A DNA stretch of 63,992 bases from Burkholderiales bacterium (GCA_030681095.1 JAUXTZ010000043.1:1-63992); one strand, 5' to 3'. Counted from the stretch's first letter, positions 67-15,920 are shown. The notes: generated from the letters alone by a model not told the origin. Program-made: numbers and translations.

Positions 67-99
67 AAAAAAGCGGCCTTTTGACGGGCCGCTTTTTTT
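67..99. terminator. bidirectional rho-independent terminator
   Basis: Perfect stem aagcggcc (71-78) / ggccgctt (87-94) with an 8-nt loop. An A-run lies upstream and a T-run (93-99) downstream. Confidence 0.6.
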
Positions 100-342: not shown

Positions 343-1305
343 TTAGTTTCCCCAGATTCTTCTAGCCCGCGACTCATCGACAAAGCGCTCACTCACATGG
401 GGATCGTGGGCTGCGCAGTAAACCCCTAAATTGCTGGGATTAGGTGACCCGCGTAGGTCCCGCAGGGCAACGAACATCTCATGATTTTGAGTTGTTGCAG
501 TACAACCGCCGACGTGCTCGCATTTCTGCCGAACTGTCAGCAGCCGGATCGTCCAAAACATGCGGGGAAGCTCGTGCAATGTCGTCCCTGAGAATACGAA
601 GCCCTGTGCAGCAGGCTTCGGATCCACCCCTGTGTCGTAAATTGATAGCCGAGCACCCTTATGGCTGTTGCACCATCCACAAGCCAAAGCAAAGTTGGAC
701 CCCGCTCCGCCCCCTCCAGCGACGGGAATGATGTGATCTACCTCGATTTGCAAGTCTCGTTCGATCAGTCCCCTCGGCCGAAAAAGGTCCACAATTTTTG
801 GAAGAACTAACGACACAGGAGGTTTGTTCGCCCCCAAAAAATTAGAAATTGCATCGCTCCTAAACGCGTAACCGCACATCCAACAGCGCGGCGGCGTCGC
901 GGCAGCGATAAGGTTCTGCTTTATTAAGCGAGTGGGTGCGGTACGTGCGGTTCCCCTCCGGCGGTGAACCTCCTGCATCAATACACGCGCCACAATTTTG
1001 GCAAATGCCTCCTTGTCATTGGCTGACTCGTTAGGAAAAAGTGAACCGGCACGCGAGATTGCCTCGACATAGATTGCGGCTTCGGAGGCCGACTTATCGA
1101 GCGTCCACCGCTGTGGGCTACTGAGTCCTGCCAGATACCACCGCAGCCACATGCTGGATGCGTCCGCCCGTAGCACCTGCTCGTTGACGGAGGTAACCGC
1201 ATCCGGCAGACGCAGGTTAGTGAGCCGTTGCAACTCGGGAAACTGCCACACCGCCTCAAAGTCTGGAGCTTGGTGAATGAACTGCGTCAGTGAAGCCAAA
1301 GACAT
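343..1305 (-). CDS. HNH endonuclease-domain protein (320 aa)
   Basis: HNH signature EVDHIIPV...ALACGWCNSHKG plus an upstream CWMCGY. The start lies 3 nt after the stop of the DGQHR gene, so the two form an operon. Confidence 0.8.
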   Translation of the reverse strand: MSLASLTQFIHQAPDFEAVWQFPELQRLTNLRLPDAVTSVNEQVLRADASSMWLRWYLAGLSSPQRWTLDKSASEAAIYVEAISRAGSLFPNESANDKEAFAKIVARVLMQEVHRRRGTARTAPTRLIKQNLIAAATPPRCWMCGYAFRSDAISNFLGANKPPVSLVLPKIVDLFRPRGLIERDLQIEVDHIIPVAGGGGAGSNFALACGWCNSHKGARLSIYDTGVDPKPAAQGFVFSGTTLHELPRMFWTIRLLTVRQKCEHVGGCTATTQNHEMFVALRDLRGSPNPSNLGVYCAAHDPHVSERFVDESRARRIWGN

Positions 1306-1308
1306 CGC

Positions 1309-3036
1309 TTAGGCCCGATACGTCCTGGAGAAGTTCGATGTCGCGGGAAGTGCTTTAGGGTCACGGCGATATGCGTACCACATAGATGACCACTGCTTCC
1401 GCGTGCCAGTCGCATCCTTCTTGACGTTCTCCAGCTTCCAGTCCCTGTTGAAGTAGCCCGCATTTACTTCTAGCAGCCAATCGTCAACGATCTGCGCCAC
1501 TTCTGCAATGTCTGTGATGGGACGTCGAGATTCGACCAGATAGGCGAAGAAATCGGTTGCGAGCGTCTGAAGCATTGGCTTGTTGAAGAGATTCGATGAC
1601 CGGGGATTGCCCCAGTAGTTCGGGGAACCGGCTGCACTCGGATCCGTTGACGCGAGTTTGTCCCGGACCGCCGTCCAAAATTGCACGAACACTTGCTTCC
1701 ATGGCCCCTCTTGGGCACTCCATGCCGCCTCGGCCTCTTTTAAAGTGCTGACCCCTTCGGAGTCCAAGACCTCAGACTTTTCGAGGAAGCGGCGCTTCCA
1801 CACATCTGCGTAATCCATCTTCGGGTCGTGGAAATACTTCGCGCCGCGCAACTCGCGAAACATTGCCACGAGCTGACCGAGAACCGACCAGGGGAGCTGG
1901 TTGTTGCCATCGGTTGAGAAACCCCGCGATACGAGATTACAAAACGGGCTTTGTTGATTGACCGCAAAATACGTTATGGCCAAAGCGCTCTGGAGGGGGA
2001 TGCCTGCATCGTCCAGCCTTTCTGCGATGCGATCGAGTTCAGAGTCAGCAAGACTTGTAGAGATGATTGTTCCAAGAAGAGACTTGCGCACGGGCGTAGC
2101 CTTTTGATTGACCACAACAAACTGGAAAACGTGCTCATCCGGCCGATCGTCTAGAAGTAAGGAAATGGGAAGGAGCCGAGAGTACGTTGTCAGCAACTCG
2201 TCCGTGATCTGCGATGGTTGCGCGCCTTCTGCCGTTCGGCGAGCGATCACATCGAGCCGAGTTTCATCCGCATCCATTGCCTTTTGCGCAGCAAGGAGAG
2301 CACCGCCCAGTCGGTGCTGTCCGTCCACAAGCACGATCGGACTCAAATATGCCTTCAACGCCTCACGTGAGAACCCGATCAACCCATCGGCCGGTGCCGA
2401 GGTCCCAAGCTCTGTCAGTACTTGGATGCGCGCTGCAATCTGATCCCAGAAATCAGTGACATAAGACTGCTCAAGCAAAGCCTCTTCAAGCGGCGGGTCA
2501 CCATCGCTGCCGACCTCCGAGTTCGAACTCTCGTTCTCCGCTGCGCCTGAGTTAACGAATGCACGCAACTCGTCAATCAGTCGTGCGGGCATTGCCCTTC
2601 CGCTCAGCGCGGGAACCCTAGCCTCCAAGTAGGTCTTCGCCTCTTGCATCATCTCCAACAGGGAGGCCCCTGATTTGTCGGCAAATGAGATCCGCAGAAG
2701 GCCGAGTGCCATTCCATCCTTTGACGGTGCATCGTTGGTCTGCTCGAAGAAAACTTCGGTGCCCTCTGCCAGACGAAGTGCGCAAAGCAGCGGGTCTTGC
2801 AAAACGTTATTCGGGTTACCGTAAAAGCTCGCGATCTGCTGAATACGGTCGGGATCCTGCTCGCGCTGAAAGCCTAGAAGCTCAGTGGCACCACCATCGT
2901 CGACGCGGGCAAGTTTCTGTGGGACCCCCGCCCACTTGCCAACTTCAGTTGCAGGCGCTGCGAGCAGGACGAGCGGCCGCCCCGAAGAGCTTTCCATAAT
3001 CTTGACTGCGGGATATTCATAAGTGGTGTTTGTCAT
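1309..3036 (-). CDS. DGQHR-domain (DndB-like, ParB/Srx-fold) protein (575 aa)
   Basis: Motifs LGFQREQD, VLVDGQHRLGGAL and FVVVNQKATPV match the DGQHR/DndB-type domain. No other domain recognised. Confidence 0.8.
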   Translation of the reverse strand: MTNTTYEYPAVKIMESSSGRPLVLLAAPATEVGKWAGVPQKLARVDDGGATELLGFQREQDPDRIQQIASFYGNPNNVLQDPLLCALRLAEGTEVFFEQTNDAPSKDGMALGLLRISFADKSGASLLEMMQEAKTYLEARVPALSGRAMPARLIDELRAFVNSGAAENESSNSEVGSDGDPPLEEALLEQSYVTDFWDQIAARIQVLTELGTSAPADGLIGFSREALKAYLSPIVLVDGQHRLGGALLAAQKAMDADETRLDVIARRTAEGAQPSQITDELLTTYSRLLPISLLLDDRPDEHVFQFVVVNQKATPVRKSLLGTIISTSLADSELDRIAERLDDAGIPLQSALAITYFAVNQQSPFCNLVSRGFSTDGNNQLPWSVLGQLVAMFRELRGAKYFHDPKMDYADVWKRRFLEKSEVLDSEGVSTLKEAEAAWSAQEGPWKQVFVQFWTAVRDKLASTDPSAAGSPNYWGNPRSSNLFNKPMLQTLATDFFAYLVESRRPITDIAEVAQIVDDWLLEVNAGYFNRDWKLENVKKDATGTRKQWSSMWYAYRRDPKALPATSNFSRTYRA

Positions 3037-3252: not shown

Positions 3253-4197
3253 CTACATAATCAAGATGTGCTGATGAATACGCTCCAGCATCGCTTCAAA
3301 GGTAGGCTGCCCGTTGTAGTAAAGGGCGGCCGTCCTCTTAAACTCCTCCTCAAATTGCTTTCGTTGCTCTTGGTCCTCTAGACGAAATGCCGCGTTGCGA
3401 GCGATCACCAGCTCGTCGCCTGACCTAAAGCGGACTTTCTTGCGCTCCTGGTAATCGTGTCGACCGCAGAAGACCTGCACCTCGTCGAGTTCCAGCAGGC
3501 AGTACACGTCGTAGTAGTGGCGCAGGAAATTTCCGGGGAAGGTCTTGGACTCTGCGAGTCGCCGATATTTGGTAGAGACGGTCTGCAGCTTCTCGACGAA
3601 GGTGTGGGTAGGCGCATAGCAAAAAACGTCCTGCGCGCGGTTATCCGCGATCTTGACACCCTTGCCTGCGGCAGTGTCATATGCCCAGGACGAGATCGTC
3701 ACTGGTCGGTTCGGTGCGGTGTCGTCAAATCCTAGCTCGAGCAAAATGCCGGTTTTTACGCCTTCCAGTGCCTTGTTCTTAGTGGGATAGCTTAAACGGA
3801 TGCCCGCGCTGCGCAACCGATCGTCATCGAACGCTGTATCACGCTCGCAGGACGTGATGCCGGGGATCTTGATCTCTTGAGTCAACCAGTCGTAAAAGGT
3901 CCGCCGCGATTCAACGTGCGCCGGTTTGTCCTGGTTGCGGCCGATTTTGACGTCCATGCCCTCTGGAGGCTCGATGCGGATGTCGATGTCCTCGGAAAAG
4001 CGGTGGATGATCCCGAAGCCTTTTGAGAGCGAGGTGCCGCCCTTTAGCTCGAACCGAAACCCCTGCGCCTGCAGTCCCCACAGGCAATGCATGATCCAGT
4101 AATCCTTCTCCACCAGGACCGGATCGATCTCGCGCTCGTCTGAAACTACGCCAATCAGCTCGCCGAAATCCCGACGCTCGTGCAGAAAATCATGCAT
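3253..4197 (-). CDS. abiEii: AbiEii/AbiGii-family nucleotidyltransferase toxin (type IV TA)
   Basis: GGTSLSKGFGIIHRFSEDIDIRI nucleotidyltransferase motif, N-terminal EKDYW. Overlaps the upstream antitoxin gene by 8 nt. Confidence 0.8.
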   Translation of the reverse strand: MHDFLHERRDFGELIGVVSDEREIDPVLVEKDYWIMHCLWGLQAQGFRFELKGGTSLSKGFGIIHRFSEDIDIRIEPPEGMDVKIGRNQDKPAHVESRRTFYDWLTQEIKIPGITSCERDTAFDDDRLRSAGIRLSYPTKNKALEGVKTGILLELGFDDTAPNRPVTISSWAYDTAAGKGVKIADNRAQDVFCYAPTHTFVEKLQTVSTKYRRLAESKTFPGNFLRHYYDVYCLLELDEVQVFCGRHDYQERKKVRFRSGDELVIARNAAFRLEDQEQRKQFEEEFKRTAALYYNGQPTFEAMLERIHQHILIM

Positions 4198-4801
4198 CGA
4201 GCCAACTCATGACGCGCTTCTTTGTGGCCATCGCACCGTAACTTTCAACAGCACGCTTGAGCCGCTGCTTGTCAAAGGCGCCCGCCCGCTCCTTCGCGCG
4301 GGCCAGAACACTGCCTTGGTCTTCCGCAAGCTCACTGAGATTGTTCAACGCGTCGACGAACAAAAACTCAGGAGTCAGCTTCTTGGGAAAGCGCTGCTTC
4401 ATGCGGAAGTCGAACTGCCGGTTGCCCAGTTTGAACACGCCATGCCGCTTGTGGTTGTAGACCACGGTCTGGTTGTACAGCTGAGTCGTGCCTAGCCCCG
4501 CCGAGTTATAGGCTGACGGCGAGAACATCAAAAAGTCCCTGTCGCGAAGAAAGGCGCCGACCAGTTGGGACTCGTCGGGAGGCAGTGCGCCAAAGGTCGA
4601 AGCTCGTGGAGCGTAGTAGAGCCCTTGGGCTAGCTTGGTGAGCTGCCCGTTGTCGACCAGTTCCCGCAGGTCGCGATCAACGGCCTTCGAGAAAGGGACC
4701 AAGTCCTCCCGTCGATACACCCTGCCGGCGCGCAGCGACCCCTTCAATCGCTGTTTAGCGGCTTGCAGCGGTGCTTTGAGCATAGAGTCGGCTGTGGTCA
4801 T
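4190..4801 (-). CDS. abiEi: AbiEi-family antitoxin / transcriptional regulator
   Basis: 203-aa ORF with an N-terminal winged-helix-like segment (LRELVDNGQLTKLAQGLYYAP) typical of AbiEi. Translationally coupled to abiEii. Confidence 0.7.
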   Translation of the reverse strand: MTTADSMLKAPLQAAKQRLKGSLRAGRVYRREDLVPFSKAVDRDLRELVDNGQLTKLAQGLYYAPRASTFGALPPDESQLVGAFLRDRDFLMFSPSAYNSAGLGTTQLYNQTVVYNHKRHGVFKLGNRQFDFRMKQRFPKKLTPEFLFVDALNNLSELAEDQGSVLARAKERAGAFDKQRLKRAVESYGAMATKKRVMSWLDA

Positions 4802-4934
4802 GCTTGGTTTTTCATTAACGTTTCATGCATTTTAACCCAACTTCTTCCTTCTGTGAGGCATCTCTCCTGGCATGTCGATCACCGGCGCCTGAATAACATT
4901 CCGAAATTATGGATTTGACAAACAGCATTCCATT

Positions 4935-7406
4935 TTGGCAGAATACAGGCATCTAATTGTTTTGGAGCCCTCCTTGGCCAGACTCAACGTACAAAGCGAG
5001 CGTGTGCAGCGCCTCATTGACGAGCGCGTCGTTCCGCTCTTCTTTGCGCACGGCAGCATTGGCGCCATGACAAAGGCGCTGAATGGGTCGCTCCAGGGCG
5101 CCGGAATCGTCGGTACGCTTCACCCCAACCGCCTCCACACCTTGCTGTCAAACGACCTGTCTCGCGGGGTGAACGAAGCGACGATTGAGCTGACCGAGCA
5201 GGCTGCGGTGCTGGCATTCGCGCAGGACCCCACCCTGCCCGACCGCGCCACGACAGCCATGGCCGCCCTGCAGCGCGAAGCCGCACGCCTGCATCTCTTC
5301 GCAGACGCGACGGGAACCGAGGCGGGCTCCCGGCTAGGACTCCCGCCTGCCGTCGCCATTCGGCTCATACCGCGTGCGGCAGCTGCCGCGCCAGGCCTGG
5401 CCATTGCCCTTCCCGACGAATTGGCAGACCAGCGTGCGCTGCCGCCGGACTGGGGCTACCAGGACACGGCGGTTACGCGCTGCCTGGAAGCGTTCGGACG
5501 ACGGCCCAACGGACGTATTGGCCTGATCCTTCCCACCGGCGCCGGCAAGACGCGCACGGCGCTACGCATCGTCCTGGCAATGCTGGACCGCGCCACGGAA
5601 CCCAAATCGCCTGTGTATTGGGTTACGCATCGCCGCAACTTGCGCGAACAGGCACACCGCGAACTGCAGAAACTGATTGCCGAGGGACACGAGCATCTGT
5701 CAGCGGAGCGGTTGATCGAGCTCGCGAACCGCATCAAGTTCGTCATGGTCGGCGATTTGTCGCCGCTGCTTGAGGGCGCAGCGATCAAGCCCACCCTGAT
5801 CGTAGTCGATGAAGCCCACCACGCCGCAGCGCCGTCCTACGGTCCAGTCTTCGCCAACCCGTGGGCTGCGCCCGTGCTTCTGTTGACGGCAACGCCCAAC
5901 CGCACCGATGCGCTGCCGATCGGCATCGACGAGATCGCCTTCACCATCACGTACCGTGAACTCGCCGAGCGACGCGCTGTCCTCACGCCCAAGTTTCTCG
6001 ACCTCCCGGTCGAAAACTTCGACTGGTCACCCGAAGCTATCGACGATCTTGCGGACTTCATCGTGGACCGCACAGCCGCCGAGTTCACCAAGGTGCTTGT
6101 GCTGGCCCCGCGCGTCGACCGCGTTGAGGAGTTTTATCGTGCACTGGTGGACCGGCTTCCGCTCGACCATCCTTTGGAGCAGGAGGACTTGGGCTTCGTC
6201 CACGGCACGGGGAACTCCCTGGGCATCGGCAACGAGGATTTCCTCGCGCGGTTCAGCAACAAACCGCGTGCGATCCTCATCTCCGCTCAGTTGTTGCTTG
6301 AGGGATTCGACGATCCGGCCATCAACACCGTCGTCCTGACCTATCCCTCCAGCTCGGTGATCCGACTGATGCAGGCGGCGGGTCGGTGCGTGCGCTATGC
6401 GCCGGATAAGCGCGCCGCCTACGTGGTGCAGGCCCGCAATGACAGCCTGGCCTACCACTTCGACCAACGCTGGCTCTACCAGGAGATCGACGATTTCCTG
6501 CGCCCCCGACTCAAGGACGTTGAATATGGCAGCCTCACCGAGCTGCGGTCCTCGGCGGCCGATATCCTGCGGGCCCACAACGTCGATCCCGCCGTGTCGG
6601 CGCGGCTTCTCACCCGCATCGACTCGATCGCGCCGGGCGAAACCTGCCGGCTCTTCCTCTACGGACTGCCCTACTTCGGCCCTGCGGAGAACTTCGAGGC
6701 GGACGCGAAGTGGAGCGGCATGCTCGAGTCCCCCGAAGTTTCGAACCTGCTTCGCACCCTCTTTAACGGTTTTTGCGCACTGGGCGCGGACCTGTCCGAC
6801 CCTTCAGACTACCTGCTGCGGGATGGAGCGGCTCACGGCCTTGCAAAGGACACGTCTCCAGGCAGCATGTGGGTGGCCATGACAGGCCTGCTAACGGCTG
6901 GCTACTTCGCCAAGCGCGAAGTGCATGGGCCGACTTCGATCGATTCTTCCGGCAGCCGTCCCTACCGAGCCAATGGTGCGACGACCTGGCTGAAGTACGT
7001 CACCTTCACTTATCGCCCGGCCGTGCCCGCAGCGCTGGCGGAGTTCCTCAGTGACTGCCACAACGCAGAGCGAATCGCGTCCCTGTACCTGGAACGCGTG
7101 ACCGAGCACGCGGCAGCGGTCAAGGTACCGCTTCCCCTCGGTGGCAGCGAGGCGTTCCTGCTGGATCCGGCCGCCAAGCAGGAGCTCGACGGCGCGACCT
7201 CCATTCTCCGCACAAAATTGGCGGACGCCAAACCTGAAGATCAATTCGGCGTACTGGCGGCTTTCATCGCCGGCGCCGACTACAAGGACCTCCCGATGCG
7301 CCTGCTGCACCGCACAGAGTTCCTCGTGAACGCAGACCGAGGCGAGCGTGTGCTCGTCCTGCAAGATTTCTTGAACCATGACCCGAAAGAGGTGAACCAT
7401 GCATGA
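4935..7406 (+). CDS. SF2 DEAH-box helicase (ResIII-like), 823 aa
   Basis: Motif I LILPTGAGKTRTAL, motif II VVDEAHHAA, motif III LLTATPNR, motif VI QAAGRCVR. About 170 aa at the N-terminus and about 300 aa at the C-terminus are unassigned. The start at 4935 is a TTG and is uncertain. Confidence 0.8.
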   Translation: MAEYRHLIVLEPSLARLNVQSERVQRLIDERVVPLFFAHGSIGAMTKALNGSLQGAGIVGTLHPNRLHTLLSNDLSRGVNEATIELTEQAAVLAFAQDPTLPDRATTAMAALQREAARLHLFADATGTEAGSRLGLPPAVAIRLIPRAAAAAPGLAIALPDELADQRALPPDWGYQDTAVTRCLEAFGRRPNGRIGLILPTGAGKTRTALRIVLAMLDRATEPKSPVYWVTHRRNLREQAHRELQKLIAEGHEHLSAERLIELANRIKFVMVGDLSPLLEGAAIKPTLIVVDEAHHAAAPSYGPVFANPWAAPVLLLTATPNRTDALPIGIDEIAFTITYRELAERRAVLTPKFLDLPVENFDWSPEAIDDLADFIVDRTAAEFTKVLVLAPRVDRVEEFYRALVDRLPLDHPLEQEDLGFVHGTGNSLGIGNEDFLARFSNKPRAILISAQLLLEGFDDPAINTVVLTYPSSSVIRLMQAAGRCVRYAPDKRAAYVVQARNDSLAYHFDQRWLYQEIDDFLRPRLKDVEYGSLTELRSSAADILRAHNVDPAVSARLLTRIDSIAPGETCRLFLYGLPYFGPAENFEADAKWSGMLESPEVSNLLRTLFNGFCALGADLSDPSDYLLRDGAAHGLAKDTSPGSMWVAMTGLLTAGYFAKREVHGPTSIDSSGSRPYRANGATTWLKYVTFTYRPAVPAALAEFLSDCHNAERIASLYLERVTEHAAAVKVPLPLGGSEAFLLDPAAKQELDGATSILRTKLADAKPEDQFGVLAAFIAGADYKDLPMRLLHRTEFLVNADRGERVLVLQDFLNHDPKEVNHA

Positions 7407-8667
7407 CATCAACCAGAAACCCATCAACGAGTTGCAAGACGCAAAGCTGGTCTCGTTCGACAAAATCTACCTCGATCCGAACAACCCGCGCATCGCTCCT
7501 GAGAATCCGCCCGGCTACAGCGATCCGGAGGCGCTGTTCGCGCCCAACCTCCAAGAGGACCTCGAGCGCCGCGTGCGCCAGGTCTACGACGTCGCCAATC
7601 TCGAAGACTCGATCGTTGCGCATGGCTGGGTTCCCATCGATTCGATCATCGTCTGGGAGCACCCTAAGAAGCCGGATCATTACGTGGTCGTAGAAGGCAA
7701 CACACGCACGGTGGCGCTGCGTTCATTGCGGAGCGAACGCCTGGAGCGCGAGCAGAAAAAGCTCGAGAAGCTGAAGAAGACGCCCTCGCGCTTTGCCGAG
7801 GAACTGAAGGTTCAAGAAGACACCGTCGCGCGGCTCGAGGCCATCGCCGCCAAGACAAGCATGCTGCGGGTCTTCCCCGTGGCAGCCAAGACTGTCGACG
7901 AGCTCCAGGCCATCTTGCCGCGGCTGCTGGGCGTGCGCCACATCAGCCATGCCCGTGAGTGGAAGCCCTATGCGACTAACCTGTATATCCTGTCCCTGTA
8001 TGAACGCCTGTTCCGTGACCGCCATGGCAGCAAGGGCGCTTTGCGACTGGAGGACGACTTGGTCATCCAAGTTGGAGAGCTTGTCTCGCTGGGCAGCACG
8101 AAGACCCGCCGCAACATCCAGGCCGCATCAGCTTTCAGCCACTTCAAGCGGGACTTCGAAGACCGTTTGCCGGAAGGTGAGTCGTTCACTGACGAAGACC
8201 ATTATTTCTTCGAGCTCATCTTGCAGAACTCCTATCCCAAAGAGCAGTTCAGCGTGACAAAGGACGCGCTGCGCCTGCCGCCAGAGTCGGAGGAAGTGCT
8301 CTTCCAGTGGGCTTTCGCCAAGCCGCGCAGCGGCAAGGAAGACGAGAACGAGAACATCTTCTACAAGGCCGAGAGCGTGCGATTGTGGAACCAGATGGCA
8401 ACGTACGACGGCAAGGCACGGACCAACTTCGCCAAGCAACTGGACGTCAATGCCCCGGAAGAGGCGCGTCCCATCCGCGTCATTGAAGCTGAGTTTCTGC
8501 AACACAAGACCCAACGTACGCCCATCGACGCGCTGAGCTCGCTACTGAACACGCTGCAGGATCTCAAGGTGGATACGCTGGTGTCGCAGCAGGAGCACCT
8601 GCGGCCAATCCTCGGCAAGATCTCGCAGCTGGTGACCACCTACGAGAAAATGATGAAGGTGGTCTAA
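7399..8667 (+). CDS. ParB N-terminal-domain (ParB/Srx fold) protein, 422 aa
   Basis: LDPNNPRI and YVVVEGNTRTVALRSL resemble ParB box I and the arginine-patch region. The ATG overlaps the helicase stop by 8 nt. Confidence 0.7.
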   Translation: MHDINQKPINELQDAKLVSFDKIYLDPNNPRIAPENPPGYSDPEALFAPNLQEDLERRVRQVYDVANLEDSIVAHGWVPIDSIIVWEHPKKPDHYVVVEGNTRTVALRSLRSERLEREQKKLEKLKKTPSRFAEELKVQEDTVARLEAIAAKTSMLRVFPVAAKTVDELQAILPRLLGVRHISHAREWKPYATNLYILSLYERLFRDRHGSKGALRLEDDLVIQVGELVSLGSTKTRRNIQAASAFSHFKRDFEDRLPEGESFTDEDHYFFELILQNSYPKEQFSVTKDALRLPPESEEVLFQWAFAKPRSGKEDENENIFYKAESVRLWNQMATYDGKARTNFAKQLDVNAPEEARPIRVIEAEFLQHKTQRTPIDALSSLLNTLQDLKVDTLVSQQEHLRPILGKISQLVTTYEKMMKVV

Positions 8668-9560: not shown

Positions 9561-9941
9561 CTACGGACTGACAGCCTGGATGGATTTGGCCATCTCCACC
9601 AGCAGATCCTCCTCACGGCGGCTCACGAGGTAGGAAAGCCCTCGATGCACGTGTACGGTAAGGGCCTGGCGAATTGTGTCTTCCGTGACTCGCTTCCCCT
9701 CGGAAAGCAGGCGTACGGCCAGAAGGTTGTAGTACAGGGCGTCCTCGCCCCCCGTGAATGTTCGCCAGTCGATCTCAATGCCACCATTGAAAGAGAAAGT
9801 CTCGTTGGGGGCAACCGACGCATTGGCGAGCGACAAGCACAACGCGTGGCGGCAGATCGCGTTGTTGTGTTCCATGCCCGTACGCCGCTTCAGCGTGACT
9901 AGCTGGTTACGCGCGGCCGCGTTCAATTTGATGCGTTCCAT
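9561..9941 (-). CDS. dndE: DNA sulfur modification protein DndE
   Basis: 126 aa with a MERIKLNAAARNQLVTLKRRTG.. DndE-like N-terminus. Last gene of the dndBCDE operon, 3 nt after dndD. Confidence 0.8.
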   Translation of the reverse strand: MERIKLNAAARNQLVTLKRRTGMEHNNAICRHALCLSLANASVAPNETFSFNGGIEIDWRTFTGGEDALYYNLLAVRLLSEGKRVTEDTIRQALTVHVHRGLSYLVSRREEDLLVEMAKSIQAVSP

Positions 9942-9944
9942 TGA

Positions 9945-11924
9945 TCAGCCTTTGTGCGAGCCAGCGCTCAGGATAGACGTGTGACCTGTAGCGTCGTCGA
10001 AGTGAAGCGAGTATTCGGCGTTGGTGAAAGGCTTGAGCGCCTCATACGCCAGACCGTCAACCTCCTGATCGGTCGACAACACGACAACTTGGTGAGACAC
10101 CGTCGCGAAGAATCGCTTGATGAGCGCTGAGCGGTGCTGCTGGTCCAGTCGCGCCAGCGGTGTATCGACCACCACCGGGAAGCGTCCCTTCCTCTCCTTG
10201 ATCAGCGCGCTGAGCACGGATATGGCTAGCAGCTGCCGCTCGCCGGCAGAGAGACGATCCATCGGCAGTTCCTGGTTCTTCCCATCTACGATGGAAACGC
10301 GGTACGTTTCGGGATCGACAAGCACTTTTGCTACCAAGTTGCGCTTACGCATCAGGTTTCGAAACTCCGTGGTGATCATCTCTGACAACCATTGCGCCTT
10401 TGAGGCCAGCAGCCGCTCTTTGAAGACAAGGAGGGCTTTGCGGGCGCGTGCCGACGCGTCGAGGCTTTTGGACTCAAGCGACCGGTCGCGGAACTCTGTG
10501 CCCAAGCGCTCTTGCGCGGCATTCAATCGGATGCGCACGTGGCTCAGGTGACTTTGCGTCTCCTCGACTTTCTGAGTAAGTCCTGACAGGTGAGCTTCGG
10601 CGACAGACGCCACCTTGGAGCGATCCTGCAGCGACTTGAGAATGCCCCCAATCTGCTCTTCGGCAGGAATTTGCCCGATCAGCTGCTCGGCACGGTCAAG
10701 GTCGACTTGCGTCTGCTGCAGGCCATCAAGCTGACTGCGCAGGCGCGCCAGGCCTTCCTGGAGCCGTCGTTCCGCATCCCGCGGAGGAGCATCCTGCAGC
10801 GTCACTGCCGCCGATGTGCGCTTTCCGCCATATGCCCGCAAGTCCTCCGCCAGTGCTTGGCGCACGGCTTCCATAGCTGGCCGCGGCATGGCTTTGACCA
10901 ATGCGGACACCACACGCTCGTCACGCTTTTTGAACTCCTGCGCAAGTAGTTTGGAATGTCGTTCGTGTTGGTCGTCGTTCCACGTATCGCGATAACGTTG
11001 CCACAGGTTCGGCAACCACGCCAGCGGCAGCAAGGGATCGGACATAGCCTCGGCGAGACCGACCCGCGCGGCGACTGCATCCCGCTTTGTCGTAACTACT
11101 GAATTGCGGATCGTCGCCGCCTGTTCATACGCGGCCAGGCCCTTGCGTTGTGCGTCGGAAGTGAATTTGTCAAGAGCTGCCTGTGCTTGCTGTGCCCCGT
11201 TTCTAGCCGCGGCCTGTTCCTGAATAAGCCTTAGCAGCGTTTCCTCAAGCTCTTTGACCTGTACATCCCAAGCGGCGACGTTCGCACGTGCCGCCTCGAA
11301 CTCGGCGGAGGTGTTTTTGTTCTTGAGCGCTGCGCGCCGCTCCAATGCCTTCAGGTCATTGCCGAGTGCCTCGATCCCCCCAATTCCCAAAAACACCTCA
11401 GTGGCACGCTTTAGCAGCTCCGGCAAGCGTTCAGGATTGGCCAGAGCCTCGATTTTTTCACCGTCGAAAAGAAACAGCTGGACAAGCTCGGCCGGCAGAA
11501 TCGATCCAATGAACTCCTCCCACGTTTGGGAAAATTCGAGATCCTTGCTACCGCCCTCGAAGACAGTCAGCACTTCGGATAGTTCGTCGCCCTTACGAGT
11601 CCATTCCCGGCGCACAACCAGCTCGCGGCGTGATCCACCGATCTCCACTTTCACGCCAATCTCGACAACCGGGGTGCCAAGGGCGTCCTTGCGATGCAGC
11701 CCAAGCAGCATCTGCTCGTACTCTGAACGGCGCATCCCATTGATCGCCTTGTAACCGTAAAGGCCGATCTGAAGTGCCGTCAGGAGCGTGGTTTTACCGC
11801 TGCCGTTGAGTGCTTTGACAAGAATGACGGGACGGGCGCCTGATACGGCCAAATCAAGAGTTTGTCGCTCGCGAAAAGGACCAAAGTTCTCGACTGAGAT
11901 GTTCGCTATTGTTATTTTTGCCAT
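9945..11924 (-). CDS. dndD: DNA sulfur modification protein DndD (SMC-like ATPase)
   Basis: Walker A LNGSGKTTLL, long coiled-coil middle, C-terminal VVVDTPLARLDQQHR...VVVLSTDQEV typical of DndD. Confidence 0.85.
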   Translation of the reverse strand: MAKITIANISVENFGPFRERQTLDLAVSGARPVILVKALNGSGKTTLLTALQIGLYGYKAINGMRRSEYEQMLLGLHRKDALGTPVVEIGVKVEIGGSRRELVVRREWTRKGDELSEVLTVFEGGSKDLEFSQTWEEFIGSILPAELVQLFLFDGEKIEALANPERLPELLKRATEVFLGIGGIEALGNDLKALERRAALKNKNTSAEFEAARANVAAWDVQVKELEETLLRLIQEQAAARNGAQQAQAALDKFTSDAQRKGLAAYEQAATIRNSVVTTKRDAVAARVGLAEAMSDPLLPLAWLPNLWQRYRDTWNDDQHERHSKLLAQEFKKRDERVVSALVKAMPRPAMEAVRQALAEDLRAYGGKRTSAAVTLQDAPPRDAERRLQEGLARLRSQLDGLQQTQVDLDRAEQLIGQIPAEEQIGGILKSLQDRSKVASVAEAHLSGLTQKVEETQSHLSHVRIRLNAAQERLGTEFRDRSLESKSLDASARARKALLVFKERLLASKAQWLSEMITTEFRNLMRKRNLVAKVLVDPETYRVSIVDGKNQELPMDRLSAGERQLLAISVLSALIKERKGRFPVVVDTPLARLDQQHRSALIKRFFATVSHQVVVLSTDQEVDGLAYEALKPFTNAEYSLHFDDATGHTSILSAGSHKG

Positions 11925-11927
11925 GGG

Positions 11928-13382
11928 TCATGCAATCGATGCGGTCGGGTCCGACGCATCTCCTTCAGATTCTTTGGTTGTGATGCTGGAGCGGGCAAAT
12001 TCCAGTGCCTCCTCCTCGTTGCGGAAGGCGTAGTGCTGCAACACGCCTTCGAGACGGTCGAGGTGCTTCGAGCGCTTGTGTGACTCCATCGACTGGAACT
12101 GCACAGCGAGCAAGCTGCGGGTCAGCTTGTACAACTCGTTGGCGGCCGCCGGATCGATCTCTTTGGCCACGCCTTCCAGCAAGCTCAGGTCAGTGGCATC
12201 CAGGGGGACCTGCTCGAGTTCCTTGCCCGGGTAAGGTTCATCGAAAACCTCCGAGTAGATTCTCGGCACATGGTCCTCAATCTCGCCCTTTTCTTCGACC
12301 CATAGCCGTCGAATCTCGTCGAGTTCCTCGATCGAAATCAACTCTATCAGTTGTGTGCCCTGCTTCTGGTCGGCATTGCGGACCACTCGTTGTGTGAGCA
12401 GCAGCTCGCGAAGCAGCTGAATGCGATGCGCTTGGGTATATGGCCCGTGCACCAATTCGTCACGGAACATGGTCAGCCGCCCATTCATCCGGCGGAAGTC
12501 CCGCACCGACCGGTCTTCGATGGCGAGGTGCTTGTTGCGGAAGTCCAAGATCGGCTGCATCCATTGCTTCTGCTCGTCGTTCTGGATCATGGCCTGCATG
12601 GATTTGTCCTGCGTCACCATCGTGCAAACGTAACAGCCAAAGCGGCTATCACCGCAGCTGGGCGTCGACGTATCGACAACAATGGGGCACTCCGCGTCGG
12701 GCGTTGCCCCGCGATAAATGCTGAAGAGTTCCTGGTTGTCGATGCCCCAAGGATTCGGCTGCGTGATTAGATACTCCCAGACGTCGTCGCTGGTCCAACT
12801 CTCGATCGGAGGGTAGACCCACACGCGAGACAGCCTGGGGTCCTTGTTCTTGCTCAGGCGAGCGCGCGTACTGCCCTGGTACTGATCCATGACTTTATCG
12901 CGCGCCTGGCTCTCGCCACGCCGCTGGCCCAGAACCAGGATGGCTTCACCATTGTTCTCGGACAGTTCCTGAATGAATTTGGTCGAAGCGCTGATTTTGA
13001 GCCTATCAGTGCACCATCTGAACTTCGGTCGCGGCGCGGGATAGCCCTTGCCAATGAGGTTTACCCAAAAGCGGTTCTCAACGGACGGTGTGAGCCGGTG
13101 GGCAGTGATGTTCAGCCCCTGCTGCTGCGCGGATATGCCGATGCGAAGCAACGACGTATGCACCCAGGCGGCAATCACCGGATTCTCGACAAGGGTGTCG
13201 GTGCTAATCACATGGATTGGTTTAACGCGTTTCTCGGGCGGCAGTGACGCGACTGCTGTCCACAACAGTTGCAACGACGCCGTCGAATCCTTCCCCCCGC
13301 TGTACCCGACGATCCATGGGATCGAGTCTGATTGATACAGCTCGCGGATCTCCTCGACGATTTTTTCAAATGGAATGCTCAT
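11928..13382 (-). CDS. dndC: DNA phosphorothioation protein DndC (PAPS-reductase-like)
   Basis: PP-loop GYSGGKDSTA and Cys cluster CGDSRFGCYVC. Start refined to MSIPFEK (ATG at 13382), which overlaps the dndB stop as ATGA. The longer track ORF to 13790 is rejected. Confidence 0.9.
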   Translation of the reverse strand: MSIPFEKIVEEIRELYQSDSIPWIVGYSGGKDSTASLQLLWTAVASLPPEKRVKPIHVISTDTLVENPVIAAWVHTSLLRIGISAQQQGLNITAHRLTPSVENRFWVNLIGKGYPAPRPKFRWCTDRLKISASTKFIQELSENNGEAILVLGQRRGESQARDKVMDQYQGSTRARLSKNKDPRLSRVWVYPPIESWTSDDVWEYLITQPNPWGIDNQELFSIYRGATPDAECPIVVDTSTPSCGDSRFGCYVCTMVTQDKSMQAMIQNDEQKQWMQPILDFRNKHLAIEDRSVRDFRRMNGRLTMFRDELVHGPYTQAHRIQLLRELLLTQRVVRNADQKQGTQLIELISIEELDEIRRLWVEEKGEIEDHVPRIYSEVFDEPYPGKELEQVPLDATDLSLLEGVAKEIDPAAANELYKLTRSLLAVQFQSMESHKRSKHLDRLEGVLQHYAFRNEEEALEFARSSITTKESEGDASDPTASIA

Positions 13383-14503
13383 GCTCGCTTTCTTCCTGCG
13401 GCACGGCGCGGGCTCCGCGAAGCCTCCCAAGCCATTTCCGCAGCACTTTCTTCCGGTGAGAGTTGGATGCCCAAGACCCGCTTGATCTCGTTGCAGGTGA
13501 GCGTGATGTTTTGGCCTGATTTGGCCATGGCCCCCCCGACCATTGCGCGGCCTTCCCAGGTAGGGGCGTTCTTCCTCGACCAATCGACACCGCGCAGCCG
13601 TTTCAACCGCTTTGCTCGCTCCGCTGCTGGCAGCTGATAGAGGGCGCGGCCAGCGCGTCCGAGTGCCTGCAGGACGATGGCGTGAGAATGAATGAAGTCG
13701 CGCCGCAGCTCGCCCGACGTCATTTTGGACTGCCGCACATAAGTCCATTCGGGAATGTGCTCGCCCACTGCCTCCCAGAATTCCGCGCATTTTTTGCTTG
13801 CGGAATGGAAGTCCTCAAGCTCTTTGTCGACCAGCAACTCCGTTGTCGCGAAGTTCACCGCACTCAGCGTGAACAGCTTGCGTGACCGCGGTGACAACGA
13901 CGAGCGCTCAGTTTCGATCAGGTTCTTGAAGACCGACGAAGTGAGGCTCAGATGCCGCGCCAGGCTGGCAGCCGCGCTCCGATGGTCATAGAGCACGCCC
14001 AAGGACGCGGACGGCTTCACCGCGTACCGGTTCAAGTCCGCAAACATCTGCTGGCAATGCTCGAGTCCACGATCCAGAAAGAATACGACCGCAATGGTCT
14101 CTTCGCCCAGATCCGGGGCCGTTTCCAGGGCTTGCACGATGGCCGCCCTCCGGTGCTGCCCATCGTTGACAATGAGCTTGGCGTCCATCGATACCGTCAA
14201 TGCGCCCATGCGGAAGTTTGCCGGTCCATCGGCGCCGACCGGGTCGAATTGGATCGTACCATCGATGGAAACGGTAATTGCTGAAAAGATGTAGCTGTTC
14301 TTGTTCTCGACGATGTAACGCGCGATGTCGGGAACCCTGGCCTTGTTCAGGGTGCGCTGCGCGCGCAGCTCCGGCACCAGTTCTTCTTCATCGAAAATAA
14401 ACAGGCGCGTAAGCAGACGCAGCGGACACATCGAGACGTAGTACTCACGCCCCGCCTGTACCCCCCGAATCGCCGGGAAGACGTACGAAAAATTCTCAGC
14501 CAT
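13379..14503 (-). CDS. dndB: DNA sulfur modification protein DndB (DGQHR domain)
   Basis: FPAIRGVQAGREYYV N-terminus and VNDGQHRRAAI. The start at 14503 gives about 374 aa, the typical DndB size. The alternative ATG at 14635 would abut the divergent gene. Confidence 0.85.
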   Translation of the reverse strand: MAENFSYVFPAIRGVQAGREYYVSMCPLRLLTRLFIFDEEELVPELRAQRTLNKARVPDIARYIVENKNSYIFSAITVSIDGTIQFDPVGADGPANFRMGALTVSMDAKLIVNDGQHRRAAIVQALETAPDLGEETIAVVFFLDRGLEHCQQMFADLNRYAVKPSASLGVLYDHRSAAASLARHLSLTSSVFKNLIETERSSLSPRSRKLFTLSAVNFATTELLVDKELEDFHSASKKCAEFWEAVGEHIPEWTYVRQSKMTSGELRRDFIHSHAIVLQALGRAGRALYQLPAAERAKRLKRLRGVDWSRKNAPTWEGRAMVGGAMAKSGQNITLTCNEIKRVLGIQLSPEESAAEMAWEASRSPRRAAGRKRA

Positions 14504-14515
14504 TAGGGAGTTAAT

Positions 14516-14551
14516 GTACCATGTTTGTATGTCAATACACAAACGTACGTC
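14516..14551. promoter_or_regulatory. imperfect palindrome in the dndB divergent control region (candidate operator)
   Basis: GTAC(cat)GTTTGTAT-gtcaat-ACACAAAC-GTAC. ACGTACG occurs at 14543-14549 and again at 14481-14487. Confidence 0.3.
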
Positions 14552-14633
14552 TTTTCCCAGGTCGCTCCGTAATGCATCAAATGTTGGCAATTCGCGTCGG
14601 CTCGGGCCGCTCGCAGGAAGCTGAGAGATATCC

Positions 14634-15920
14634 ATGCATGAAGCGCTTGTCGTGTTCTCACGCGCCGGCCTGTTTCAGACCTCTATTCTCGCCAAAGACG
14701 TACGCAGCCGAGAGCATGCGCGCAAGCTCTGGCCGTTGGTAGCGCCGGACGCGCACGGACAGCTGCTGACCTGGGTTAGCCCCTCCTTTCAGAACGGACG
14801 CTGCCGGCGCCGTTCGCACTTTCGCTGTTTGCCGACATCAGCCTCGTATGACCTGAAGGCGCACTTCGAGACCGAAGAGCGCGAGCGATTACAAGCCACC
14901 GGCGAAAGTGCCGAGCATATGCAAGCAAAGCAGTTGATTGCCCAGGAGCTCCAGAGCCGCTTGTCCGCCGGCTTAGGACTGCCCTGGTCCTTCAACGACC
15001 CCGATGCAACCGACTACCACCTCGAAGGAAACCTCCTCCTCGGCGCTGACCGAATTGCCATGGAGCACACACTCAGGACCCCGTTTGGCAGCAGCTTCCG
15101 TTTAGACATCGCGGTTCTCGGGCCACCGATTCGCAAGAAACCCATGGTGCTCGGGGGCATCGAGATTGAACTGGGTCACGCCTTCGACGGTCGCAAGGCG
15201 TTGATCGGCAAATCCCTCGGGTTTCCTTTGATCTCCGTCGACATTTCGGACATGAGCCTAGGGGACATCACTACCGATTGGGCGCGCAATGCTCTTAGCG
15301 CAACGACGCGAAGCGATGAACAGGGTCGCAGGCGGACCTACTACTATCTTCACGATCTTCTCTACCCGGAGTTCACTCAACTGCCGGCCTTCTTGGACAG
15401 CGAGCAGCGACATCAGTACCTGATCTTCGCCGACGACACGACGCTCTCTAAACTTGTGCGGTGGTTTGAAGCGCTCAGCGTCAACCTCGGGTATAGCAAA
15501 GGCGCAGTTGCCATTGCTATTGTGAATTCAAGTAGCGAGCAGTCGCAAAAAATGCTTCAGTACGCTGGCGACATCGTGGGCTCGGGCTGGCAGCAGTTCA
15601 ACGACCGACAGTGCTTGCGCATCACTGTCCCACGCCCGAAGGGCCCGGCAGATCTCCAGGCGCATCGCCTGCACATGATGCTGGCATACATTCTTCTCGA
15701 TCATGCGGATGCCTTGGTAGGCTACAAGTACCGCAAAGGGATCCAGAACGACCATCCCGAAGAGAATCTCTGGGTGACGCGCCGCTGGGATTCGCAGCAG
15801 GGGGTCGCCACGACGCATCGCGTGTTGCCCAAGCGGTTGGCCGAGCCGGTGAATCGTCTAGTTCAGTTCGTCCGCGAGCTGCAAGCGGGCTCCCCGCATG
15901 CGCCGGCACAGATACGCTAG
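14634..15920 (+). CDS. hypothetical protein, possible CoiA-like PD-(D/E)xK nuclease (428 aa)
   Basis: ESAEHMQAKQLI ... FRLDIAVL ... GGIEIELGH resembles the CoiA-type nuclease signature (ES..H..AK / D / E.E). Divergent from dndB. Start uncertain. Confidence 0.5.
   Translation: MHEALVVFSRAGLFQTSILAKDVRSREHARKLWPLVAPDAHGQLLTWVSPSFQNGRCRRRSHFRCLPTSASYDLKAHFETEERERLQATGESAEHMQAKQLIAQELQSRLSAGLGLPWSFNDPDATDYHLEGNLLLGADRIAMEHTLRTPFGSSFRLDIAVLGPPIRKKPMVLGGIEIELGHAFDGRKALIGKSLGFPLISVDISDMSLGDITTDWARNALSATTRSDEQGRRRTYYYLHDLLYPEFTQLPAFLDSEQRHQYLIFADDTTLSKLVRWFEALSVNLGYSKGAVAIAIVNSSSEQSQKMLQYAGDIVGSGWQQFNDRQCLRITVPRPKGPADLQAHRLHMMLAYILLDHADALVGYKYRKGIQNDHPEENLWVTRRWDSQQGVATTHRVLPKRLAEPVNRLVQFVRELQAGSPHAPAQIR

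Follow-up and report, generated by a model that had tools for sequence, protein, structure and literature searches.

What does a two-gene unit joining a DGQHR-domain protein to a stand-alone HNH nuclease do in a bacterial defence island that also carries DNA phosphorothioation (PT) genes, and is it a split version of a known enzyme or something else? The question is raised by positions 343 to 3,036 of a stretch of Burkholderiales bacterium DNA (63,992 nucleotides, hereafter the window). Both genes are on the minus strand (575-aa ORF, 1309..3036; 320-aa ORF, 343..1305) and their junction reads TAA-GCG-ATG, i.e., a gap of 3 nt from the stop of the 575-aa gene to the start of the HNH gene, so that translation of the latter is probably coupled to that of the former. 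The ORF calls reproduce exactly what an earlier note on this DNA had described, from the two reading frames and their spacing to the motifs GFQREQD (residues 55–61), VDGQHRLGG (237–245) and FVVVNQKATPV (306–316) in the larger protein and EVDHIIPV (188–195) and CGWCNSHKG (209–217) in the smaller. A terminator-like hairpin (67..98, minus strand; 12-bp stem and T-run) lies 245 nt past the stop codon of the HNH gene and probably marks the end of the pair's transcript; at the other end, a promoter scan of the 216-nt gap before the pair yielded no sigma-70-like site. Purifying selection is strong on both genes, with dN/dS of 0.03–0.05 for the 575-aa gene and 0.06–0.08 for the HNH gene in comparisons with relatives 83–90% identical at the protein level; values in this range (0.03–0.08) indicate real genes rather than chance ORFs.

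The larger protein appears to belong, as the earlier note had it, to the DGQHR family (DndB/DpdB-like, ParB superfamily), and has two insertions as well as a helical C-terminal domain rich in Trp (ORF, TIGR03187, family alignment A1, AF2 and dN/dS). TIGR03187 was matched by all 24 family members tested (best 2e-13), and PF14072 by 14 of 24. The intact window protein scored 45.5 bits against TIGR03187, in two stretches and below the cutoff of 58.85; in silico excision of insertion 1 (residues 122–228; 2353..2673) raised this to 56.4 bits, and excision of both insertions (the second at residues 257–286; 2179..2268) to 67.3 bits in a single stretch covering profile positions 23–244 of 276. Insertion is also why only the N-terminal half of the family aligned by hhalign to a single DndB or to a DndB profile, a point that the excision test resolved; in these comparisons the family reached E ~3e-4 against the DndB profile vs. 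3e-59 against its own sister branch, described below. On these profile matches, we accept the 575-aa protein as an insertion-bearing variant of the DGQHR domain family (TIGR03187).

Within this protein, the first half of the DGQHR domain (residues 1–121; 2674..3036), which carries the WxGxPxK and GFQR motifs, is the part covered by the hhalign match to the DndB profile. It is followed by insertion 1, made of helices and an acidic low-confidence linker (165–190) and common, in the alignment, to the dnd-linked family and its dpd-linked sister branch, then by the VDGQHRLGG motif (2302..2328), a ParB Box-II-like GxxR nucleotide-binding motif. Insertion 2 is restricted to the dnd-linked branch and missing from the sister branch, and the third DGQHR-domain motif, FQFVVVNQKATPV (residues 304–316; 2089..2127), is conserved in both. 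Across 75 dnd-branch and 7 dpd-branch sequences, GFQR (55–58), VDGQHR (237–242) and FQFVVVNQKATP (304–315) are invariant; residue by residue, W35, G37, P39, G55, Q57, R58 and R64 are conserved in the two branches, D238, G239, Q240, H241 and R242 are invariant, and Q305, F306, V307, V308, N310, A313 and P315 are again conserved. The helical C-terminal domain (residues ~330–575; 1312..2049), defined from the alignment and the AF2 model, bears NLFNKP and VKKDxxGxRxQW motifs, and Pfam and NCBIfam profile searches recognised neither a nuclease motif nor a family match in it.

The AF2 model of the 575-aa protein (pLDDT 83, falling below 50 at the 165–190 linker) has a strand (234–238) followed by a helix (240–256), with DGQHR at the strand-to-helix junction. 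Foldseek with this full-length model returned no PDB match below E=0.1 and, against BFVD, one unnamed match at 1e-5 alongside weak DndB/ParB-like matches (E 0.4–1.1), and the full-length model of the HNH protein had no significant match in the PDB; for both models this outcome is uninformative rather than negative. A PDB sequence search with the 575-aa protein likewise gave no match. The predicted ParB fold is one suggested by sequence-family membership. NTPase activity may also be expected, since ATP is bound or hydrolysed by proteins of the DGQHR family: DNA stimulates the ATPase activity of DpdB (PMC10164549), and DndB is modulated by ATP (PMC10853773). In DndI, the arginine equivalent to that of the DGQHR motif is essential for ATPase activity (PMC11662687).

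The 320-aa partner (ORF, PF01844, alignment A2, AF2 and dN/dS) carries the clear HNH domain that had been claimed for it. PF01844 scores 27.2 bits over residues 186–219 (gathering score 21.4), and the only other Pfam match is PF14279. The HNH core (residues 139–220; 646..891), delimited with PF01844 and the A2 profile, contains two CxxC zinc ligand pairs and the catalytic residues, and C141/C144, C209/C212, H191, N204, N213 and K216 are all invariant in 79 dnd-branch and 8 dpd-branch sequences. The HNH domain of Cas9 is matched by the A2 profile at E=6e-5, and PDB sequence matches are confined to Cas9, IscB and other classical HNH domains. Judged by residue conservation the protein appears catalytically intact, and nuclease activity is predicted for it. 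On either side of the core, the alignment and the AF2 model (pLDDT 88) delineate an all-helical N-terminal domain (residues 1–135; 901..1305) with conserved W20, D48, W53 and W56, which had no Pfam or PDB match and is a candidate docking or regulatory domain, and a beta-rich C-terminal domain (~245–310; 376..573) with a putative second zinc site of the CCCH type (C262, C268, C297 and H300, all conserved). One relative whose HNH gene was called at 269 aa (L081) had been considered truncated; this was rejected, as only the start-codon call differs and the ORF is intact.

The earlier note had made conservation of the two genes as neighbours a test of its idea, and they are so conserved: the HNH homolog lies immediately downstream of the DGQHR gene in 78 of 80 loci, the other two being contigs that end at the match, so that both genes are adjacent in all 78 testable loci. 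These span Proteobacteria, Actinobacteria, Cyanobacteria, Acidobacteria, Planctomycetota and Saccharibacteria, and a search of 1.84 billion representative proteins puts the whole family at 146 clusters (E<=1e-30). The intergenic gap has a median of 4 nt, with many −4/−1 overlaps, and one apparent in-frame fusion of the two genes was found (P0321). The pair also co-diverges, with pairwise distances correlated at r=0.92 (partial r=0.86 when controlling for Dnd divergence), as compared to 0.88 for DndC and DndD. The DGQHR and HNH proteins are predicted to form a physical complex. Carriage as a phage gene was considered and rejected, as the pair was found in none of 50,697 phage records and in only 2 loci among the 2.9 million contigs of IMG/VR.

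How, then, does this pair relate to known modification-reading nucleases? SspE, GmrSD and BrxU (DUF262+DUF1524) share its domain logic, in which a ParB-fold NTPase sensor is combined with an HNH-type nuclease to read DNA modification; SspE is a sensor of PT whose nicking is gated by its GTPase activity. They differ in that both domains of our pair come from other families, and that its genomic association is with dnd or dpd rather than ssp; GmrS and GmrD are sometimes separate genes, like the pair, but are DUF262 and DUF1524 proteins. DUF262 (PF03235) was matched at E<=1 neither by the window protein nor by the 24 family members, whose motif is DGQHR and not DGQQR, and DUF1524 (PF07510) had no match in the HNH partner. 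Origin by fission of SspE, GmrSD or DndI was rejected for lack of any DUF262/DUF1524 signal, and is further disfavoured by the PDB searches, which gave nothing for the 575-aa protein and only HNH domains, with no DndI or SspE entry, for its partner. The description "split SspE/GmrSD" in the earlier note thus holds as an analogy of domain logic and fails as family fission: as far as profile matches can tell, the pair is an analogue of SspE, GmrSD and DndI, not a split copy.

Closer in family are DndB and DpdB (TIGR03187; TIGR03233; NF041060), which share the DGQHR domain and the arrangement of a ParB-type N-terminal domain followed by a helical C-terminal one. However, the 575-aa protein is ~200 aa longer, has two insertions, is always followed by an HNH gene and usually co-exists with a canonical DndB (60 of 78 loci); it scores 25.3 bits against the DpdB equivalog NF041060 (cutoff 300) and has no match to the DndB equivalog TIGR03233 (cutoff 328 bits). 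Another dnd-satellite DGQHR protein, TIGR04172 ("DNA phosphorothioation-associated DGQHR protein 1", of the Serratia odorifera type), was identified through phylogenetic profiling, with its gene located between dptH and dptE (PMC3226654), but forms a separate family of other length (model of 381 positions); assignment to it was rejected at 12–26 bits vs. a cutoff of 450 (native E=0.068; 25.7 bits after excision). No match above cutoff was obtained for the dnd-satellite families TIGR03236, TIGR03237, TIGR03238, TIGR04095 and TIGR04062. ScoMcrA-type SBD-SRA-HNH enzymes are alike in being HNH nucleases often found in dnd neighbourhoods (PMC10853773).

In the window, the pair lies 6.5 kb from the dndB-dndC-dndD-dndE operon that had been noted earlier (9561..14635, minus strand; dndB, dndC and dndD at 9945-14635, dndE at 9561-9941) and that is presumed to be its cognate modification module, with TIGR03233, TIGR03183 and TIGR03185 above cutoff and 534 bits to TIGR03233 for the true DndB. 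Between the two are an AbiE toxin-antitoxin pair, the abortive-infection genes AbiEi/AbiEii, which directly adjoins our pair, and a helicase/REase block; there are no DptFGH or Pbe-like genes in the window. The island also encodes a HARE-HTH+Mrr-type REase.

The survey of neighbourhoods found the enrichment beside dnd that the earlier note had asked about, with dndC or dndD within 10 kb of the pair in 73 of 78 loci (94%), on either side and in either orientation, vs. a genome base rate of 1.8% for dndBCD (PMC11662687; binomial P ~1e-120). Such near-exclusive co-location with dndBCDE (73/78) is what would be expected of a dnd-associated restriction module, and part of the pair's divergence follows that of DndC and DndD (r 0.6–0.7). 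Three loci (L028, L039 and L053) have the order dptF-dptG-dptH-[pair]-dndE-D-C-B and a fourth (L062) the same layout with a degraded dptH; all four are gammaproteobacterial. In Salmonella Cerro 87 this slot between dptH and dndE is held by DndI, a DUF262+DUF1524 protein that acts as a PT-stimulated ATPase and nickase (PMC11662687).

DndI (Salmonella enterica Cerro 87; PDB 9JFL; PMC11662687) is among the closest points of comparison in design. Its ParB-superfamily NTPase-type domain, which bears a D-G-Q-x-R motif, is joined to a His-Me/HNH nuclease, its gene lies beside dndBCDE, and the dptH–dndE slot that it fills is the one taken by the pair in dptFGH-containing loci. DndI has been proven to be a PT-sensing ATPase and nickase, and provides phage defence together with IscS-DndBCDE (PMC11662687). 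It differs in being one polypeptide, DUF262 (DGQQR) plus DUF1524, whereas the pair is two, with a sensor from the DGQHR/DndB family bearing two insertions and a nuclease of the classical CxxC-zinc HNH type (PF01844) with extra N- and C-terminal domains.

The HNH–DGQHR design is not limited to dnd. A sister dyad of ~490 aa (DGQHR) and ~282 aa (HNH) sits beside dpd/que clusters in 6 of 8 contexts and, among 19 metagenome loci of 8 kb or more, in 14, which shows that DNA-modification systems have this module as a recurrent partner. The sister pair is, in several dpd loci, embedded in the que/dpdA biosynthesis-modification block and not grouped with dpdD-K, a placement that fits a modification-side role equally well.

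Our preferred reading, to which we give about an even chance, is that the pair is a two-subunit modification-coupled restriction effector that works with the dndBCDE phosphorothioation system nearby. Sensing and switching would fall to the 575-aa DGQHR protein, with a ParB-superfamily NTPase-type domain as in DndB and DpdB whose invariant DGQHR arginine would bind and hydrolyse NTP; this protein would read the modification state either of the DNA or, possibly, of the modification machinery. The executor would be the 320-aa protein, as a zinc-stabilised HNH nuclease or nickase that the sensor restrains or sets free, such that foreign DNA lacking the modification would be cut or nicked while self DNA marked by PT would be spared. 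Experiments on DndI and SspE, in which ParB-like and HNH parts are fused, have demonstrated discrimination of this kind; that the pair senses PT, and discriminates in this direction, is what we would predict by analogy. Points against this reading are the structure searches above, in which the 575-aa model had no clear ParB match, and the AbiE and helicase/REase genes that separate the pair from dnd in the window.

In favour of the restriction effector, DptFGH/TIGR04095 restriction genes are absent within 10 kb in 51 of 78 loci, as DptFGH and Pbe-like genes are from the window; the remaining 27 hold TIGR04095 (PLD+helicase; 23 loci) or DptFGH (4 loci), so that the pair is not always the sole nuclease. 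This co-occurrence suits an alternative in which the pair is a backup, guard or addiction module, i.e., a toxic nuclease checked by intact modification and unleashed on self or on all DNA when a phage inhibits dnd/dpd or the island is lost, with abortive infection or stabilisation of the island as the result. Stand-alone endoDNases at dnd loci have been proposed as suicide backups in a comparative-genomics reappraisal of Dnd (PMC10853773), DndI and DndFGH are toxic in PT-less cells (PMC11662687), and an AbiEi/AbiEii abortive-infection pair stands directly beside the dyad in the window. Nevertheless, we consider this unlikely: the nuclease is never stand-alone but has a sensor-type DGQHR partner in 78/78 loci, and the pair occupies the slot of DndI, a restriction effector against phage. 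The mechanism also overlaps with that of a restriction effector, and sequence alone cannot separate the two.

Alternatively, the pair could serve modification itself, with the DGQHR protein, as a DndB/DpdB-like paralog, regulating or targeting it by ATP-dependent loading or repression, and an HNH nick or distortion helping DndCDE or DpdA to reach DNA. Both of the closest families work on the side of modification, DndB as a regulator and DpdB as an ATPase required for the insertion of preQ0, the sister pair sits between folE/queD and dpdA in dpd loci (L090, L104-L106, L123-L125, L131), and DndB was not detected in a few cyanobacterial and enterobacterial loci (L007, L037, L057, L061). However, canonical DndB is present in 60/78 loci, which indicates that the pair is no DndB replacement; that idea, first prompted by cyanobacterial loci without DndB in tblastn, was rejected as a general rule when ORF clustering found an inverted DndB in most of them. 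Moreover, dndACDE alone suffice for PT (PMC11662687) and dpdA/B/C alone for dPreQ0/dADG (PMC10164549) in characterised systems without the pair, only a small minority of dnd clusters have it (given the size of the family), and its variable orientation and side relative to dnd are as expected of an independent module. A role as modification accessory thus appears quite doubtful. Finally, a Type IV nuclease that cuts foreign-modified DNA (e.g., with PT at another motif or with the hypermodified bases of phages) and merely co-travels in the defence island seems very improbable, for although GmrSD/BrxU-type ParB+HNH enzymes are Type IV, SBD-SRA-HNH Type IV enzymes also occur in dnd loci (PMC10853773) and the window island has its HARE-HTH+Mrr-type REase, the 94% dnd linkage and dpd-specific sister branch are far tighter than generic defence-island hitch-hiking, co-divergence with DndC and DndD is partial but present, and a PT-dependent cutter beside a PT writer would risk autoimmunity.

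Returning to the restriction effector, dnd and dpd each have their own DGQHR protein (DndB or DpdB), and the dyad may thus read self status via this resident ParB-fold partner. It is tempting to speculate, although we regard this as a long shot, that the dyad is a portable, modification-agnostic effector, a single ancestral two-gene module plugged into two marking systems of unrelated chemistry, the backbone phosphorothioation of dnd and the 7-deazaguanine base exchange of dpd. It would then recognise self through the resident DndB/DpdB, e.g., by NTP-dependent heterodimerisation on DNA, and not through the chemical mark. If true, restriction and modification would be coupled here by a novel route.

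Full-text literature searches found no paper describing a DGQHR+HNH dyad, and, apart from the generic HNH domain, we found no family model for either protein in Pfam, NCBIfam or PADLOC. In PADLOC-DB v2.0.0, the pair had no significant match to any known system component model, the 575-aa protein giving only an N-terminal DpdB match (6.7e-9) and the HNH protein only marginal PtuB/REase matches (E 1e-3 or weaker). Without family model or name, the dyad is missed by current defence-system annotation, which defining the family would improve, and its enzyme could become another PT- or deazaguanine-discriminating reagent.

Overall, the pair is probably an undescribed restriction partner of dnd/dpd systems. 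Most dnd clusters lack DndFGH, and the PT field still asks which gene is their partner in restriction (PMC10853773). The dyad is a specific and testable candidate for a subset of these clusters, including plasmid-borne (Agrobacterium pTi), Streptomyces, cyanobacterial, Vibrio and Pseudomonas-like islands. The dpd-linked sister branch further suggests that the same sensor-nuclease design serves two unrelated DNA modifications, which would make the dyad a natural system for how ParB-fold NTPases read modification state.

The gene pair consists of two minus-strand ORFs, one coding for a 575-aa DGQHR protein (1309..3036) and the other for a 320-aa HNH protein (343..1305), separated by 3 nt (junction TAA-GCG-ATG); all motifs quoted for the two proteins in the earlier note are found in these ORFs. 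A T-tailed hairpin with a 12-bp stem (98..67, minus strand) lies 245 nt downstream of the HNH gene, and the 216-nt gap ahead of the pair yielded no sigma-70-like promoter. Compared with the closest relatives (loci L081 and L082, 83–90% protein identity), dN/dS is 0.03–0.05 for the DGQHR gene and 0.06–0.08 for the HNH gene; both genes are functional.

No Pfam model matched the 575-aa protein, and the intact sequence scored 45.5 bits, in two stretches, against the curated DGQHR domain model TIGR03187, under its cutoff of 58.85 bits. Removing residues 122–228 in silico raised this score to 56.4 bits, and removing 257–286 as well gave 67.3 bits in a single match (profile positions 23–244 of 276), which argues for a genuine DGQHR domain (predicted DndB/DpdB-type, ParB superfamily) broken by two insertions. 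Across the family, TIGR03187 was matched by all 24 diverse members tested and PF14072 (DndB) by 14 of them, and the hhalign alignment with the DndB profile covered only the first ~120 residues because a ~107-residue insertion sits just ahead of the DGQHR motif. The C-terminal domain is helical and Trp-rich (model pLDDT 83). The protein has no sequence relative in the PDB, and structure searches with its model gave no independent confirmation of a ParB fold.

PF01844 (HNH) matches residues 186–219 of the 320-aa protein above threshold (27.2 bits vs. a gathering score of 21.4). Catalytic conservation is apparent in a 31-sequence family alignment (A2), where a CxxC (C141, C144), H191, N204, a further CxxC (C209, C212) and K216 are invariant and N213 nearly so, alongside a conserved second cluster (C262, C268, C297, H300) and a conserved, helical, Trp-rich N-terminal domain. 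The A2 profile matched the Cas9 HNH domain (E = 6e-5). The protein was modelled by AF2 with good confidence (pLDDT 88); its full-length fold found no match in the PDB, where sequence matches are to classical HNH domains only.

To evaluate the distribution of the pair, we used a profile scan with one genome per species, which yielded 80 loci from Alpha-, Beta- and Gammaproteobacteria, Actinobacteria, Cyanobacteria, Acidobacteria, Myxococcota, Planctomycetota and Saccharibacteria. In 78 of these, the next gene downstream, encoded on the same strand, is an HNH homologue, the remaining two contigs ending at the match; pairing is thus obligate, and the conservation as neighbours that the earlier note required is borne out. 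The median intergenic gap is 4 nt, with frequent 4- or 1-nt overlaps. Pairwise distances of the two proteins are correlated (r = 0.92; partial r = 0.86 with Dnd divergence controlled) as tightly as those of DndC and DndD (0.88), and those of the pair against DndC and DndD at 0.61–0.72. One metagenomic representative protein (P0321, 761 aa) is an apparent in-frame DGQHR–HNH fusion with an N-terminally truncated DGQHR part and an HNH portion 36% identical to that of the window (E = 8e-61); it may reflect a real fusion of the genes or an artefact of sequencing or of a stop codon. With 146 clusters at E ≤ 1e-30 in 1.84 billion representative proteins, the family is compact; the pair has no match in 50,697 phage records and almost none in IMG/VR.

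Unsupervised ORF clustering around the 78 pair-bearing loci identified dndC or dndD in 73, DndB in 60, DndE in 52 and DndA in 49. Given a dndBCD base rate of 1.8% of genomes (PMC11662687), the 73 dnd-linked loci correspond to a binomial P of ~1e-120, an enrichment beside dnd clusters of the kind the earlier note asked about; only four loci lack any dnd gene, two of them at contig edges. Further neighbours include TIGR04096, a ~487-aa uncharacterised [quoted passage not shown] (41/78, e.g., L069 12803–14266), a Pbe-like set of TIGR04095 PLD+helicase restriction enzyme, DndD paralog and TIGR04062 (23/78), and DptFGH (4/78). The pair occurs on both sides of dnd and in both orientations, as would be expected of an autonomous module, and the conjugative Agrobacterium plasmid pTiAF3.44 carries it beside a helicase, a 423-aa protein and dndEDCB|A.

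The window's own dndB, dndC, dndD and dndE (9561–14635, minus strand) all exceed curated cutoffs. DndA, DptFGH, the TIGR04095 enzyme and the TIGR04096 methyltransferase are absent from the window. G+C is 55–62% in the first ~18 kb, below the next 16 kb (about 62–67%) and in line with an island, and the layout is identical in two close relatives. Directly upstream of the DGQHR gene, after the 216-nt gap and on the same strand, lies an AbiEii/AbiEi type IV toxin-antitoxin (abortive infection) pair (3253–4801, minus), an arrangement kept in L081 and L082, and the two pairs may be co-transcribed. It is followed by an 823-aa SF2 helicase (4935–7406, plus; ResIII/DEAD/Helicase_C) and an overlapping gene for a 422-aa protein (7399–8667, plus) with no Pfam match and a resemblance to PADLOC PD-Lambda-5_A limited to the N-terminus. 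This two-gene unit is also found beside dnd and the pair in L002, L008, L018 and pTiAF3.44 (43–44% identity), and may represent a further module linked to dnd. A 270-aa HARE-HTH + Mrr_cat restriction endonuclease (8716–9528, plus) converges on dndE; in 12 of 80 loci a homologue adjoins dnd genes. The enzyme fits the “HARE-HTH+REase” class recorded at dnd loci (PMC10853773) and is a candidate second restriction partner in the island. Diverging from dndB, where most other loci have dndA, is a 428-aa ORF (14634–15920, plus) without a match in Pfam, NCBIfam or PADLOC, and a 312-aa AbiJ_NTD4 protein (15977–16915, minus; PADLOC PDC-S32, 2e-46) is a further defence-type gene in this low-GC ~18-kb island.

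The earlier note described the pair as a split SspE/GmrSD-like cassette. The likeness to DndI, SspE and GmrSD stands at the level of how the pair would work, but neither protein gave a DUF262 or DUF1524 signal, and membership of these systems was rejected since both domains come from other families. Likewise, the 575-aa protein is not DndB, DpdB or TIGR04172, though it belongs to the DGQHR superfamily. Three loci (L028, L039, L053) have the order dptF-dptG-dptH-[DGQHR-HNH]-dndE-D-C-B-(A), and L062 the same layout with dptH degraded; this dptH-[ ]-dndE slot is filled by DndI in Salmonella Cerro 87 and, in Serratia, by the unrelated TIGR04172 DGQHR protein. No PADLOC system model matched the pair, whose proteins are publicly annotated as “hypothetical protein” or “HNH endonuclease”. 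Full-text searches of the literature, with targeted reading, turned up no description of it, the closest statement being a generic one that HNH and other nucleases are present in dnd neighbourhoods (PMC10853773).

A Bradyrhizobium pB41S5 plasmid homologue (24.5% identity; N-terminus truncated in the RefSeq annotation) led to a sister branch made of a ~490-aa DGQHR-like subfamily and a ~282-aa HNH partner. Profile comparisons of the two branches (DGQHR: 100%, E = 3e-59, 482 columns, insertion 1 included; HNH: 98%, E = 2e-13, 267 columns) show both components to be full-length homologues of the window's proteins. Residues conserved in both branches are W35, G37, P39, G55, Q57, R58, R64, DGQHR 238–242, E301, Q305, N310 and P315 in the DGQHR protein, and C141, H191, N204, C209, N213, K216 and C262 in the HNH protein. 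These dyads (L084–L091 and L094–L131) lie beside or inside dpd/que clusters (e.g., L085 10001–12337, L090 10001–12363): in six of eight contexts the surroundings are a 7-deazaguanine cluster that includes TGT/DpdA, DpdB and QueC/D/E, and among 19 metagenome loci of at least 8 kb with the HNH partner downstream, 14 have TGT/DpdB/Que genes, two DndC/DndD and three neither, one of which (L117) has DpdD.

Other arrangements were also observed. Two sister-branch members, in L086 (7480–9780, 1148–7483) and L091 (12556–21209), have no dpd genes within 10 kb; in their place the flanking genes encode a ~760-aa protein and an SF1-type helicase of ~2100 aa (AAA_11/AAA_12), which may be a third partner system. 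The dpd locus L087 holds a second pair on the opposite strand (4128–6226, minus) in reversed order, HNH (286 aa) then DndB-like (413 aa) with a 4-nt overlap, so DGQHR/HNH pairing recurs in more than one form. Divergent dyads in L128 (318–2896) and L129 (3364–5994, a human-gut metagenome contig), 24–25% identical to the sister-branch query, have DndC/DndD homologues after them; the dnd linkage thus reaches a more distant clade, gut bacteria included.

DpdB, which has a ParB-fold N-domain and a helical C-domain, is an ATPase stimulated by DNA (PMC10164549), and DndI and SspE couple a PT-sensing ParB-like NTPase to HNH-type nicking (PMC11662687). By analogy, the DGQHR protein would be an NTP-dependent sensor and switch, the HNH protein a nuclease under its control, and the two, perhaps as a complex, would restrict DNA without the host's PT mark, a reading to which we give an even chance. 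A guard, abortive-infection or addiction module is unlikely. Somewhat less likely again is a modification-side accessory: the location of the sister pair inside que/dpdA blocks speaks for it, the sufficiency of the core dnd and dpd genes and the rarity of the pair against it. A Type IV modification-dependent nuclease is highly improbable. Restriction of DNA without the PT mark is the reading we prefer. The full-length homology of the two branches, together with their dnd and dpd contexts, shows the dyad to be a single ancient module that has become a partner of DNA-modification systems again and again.
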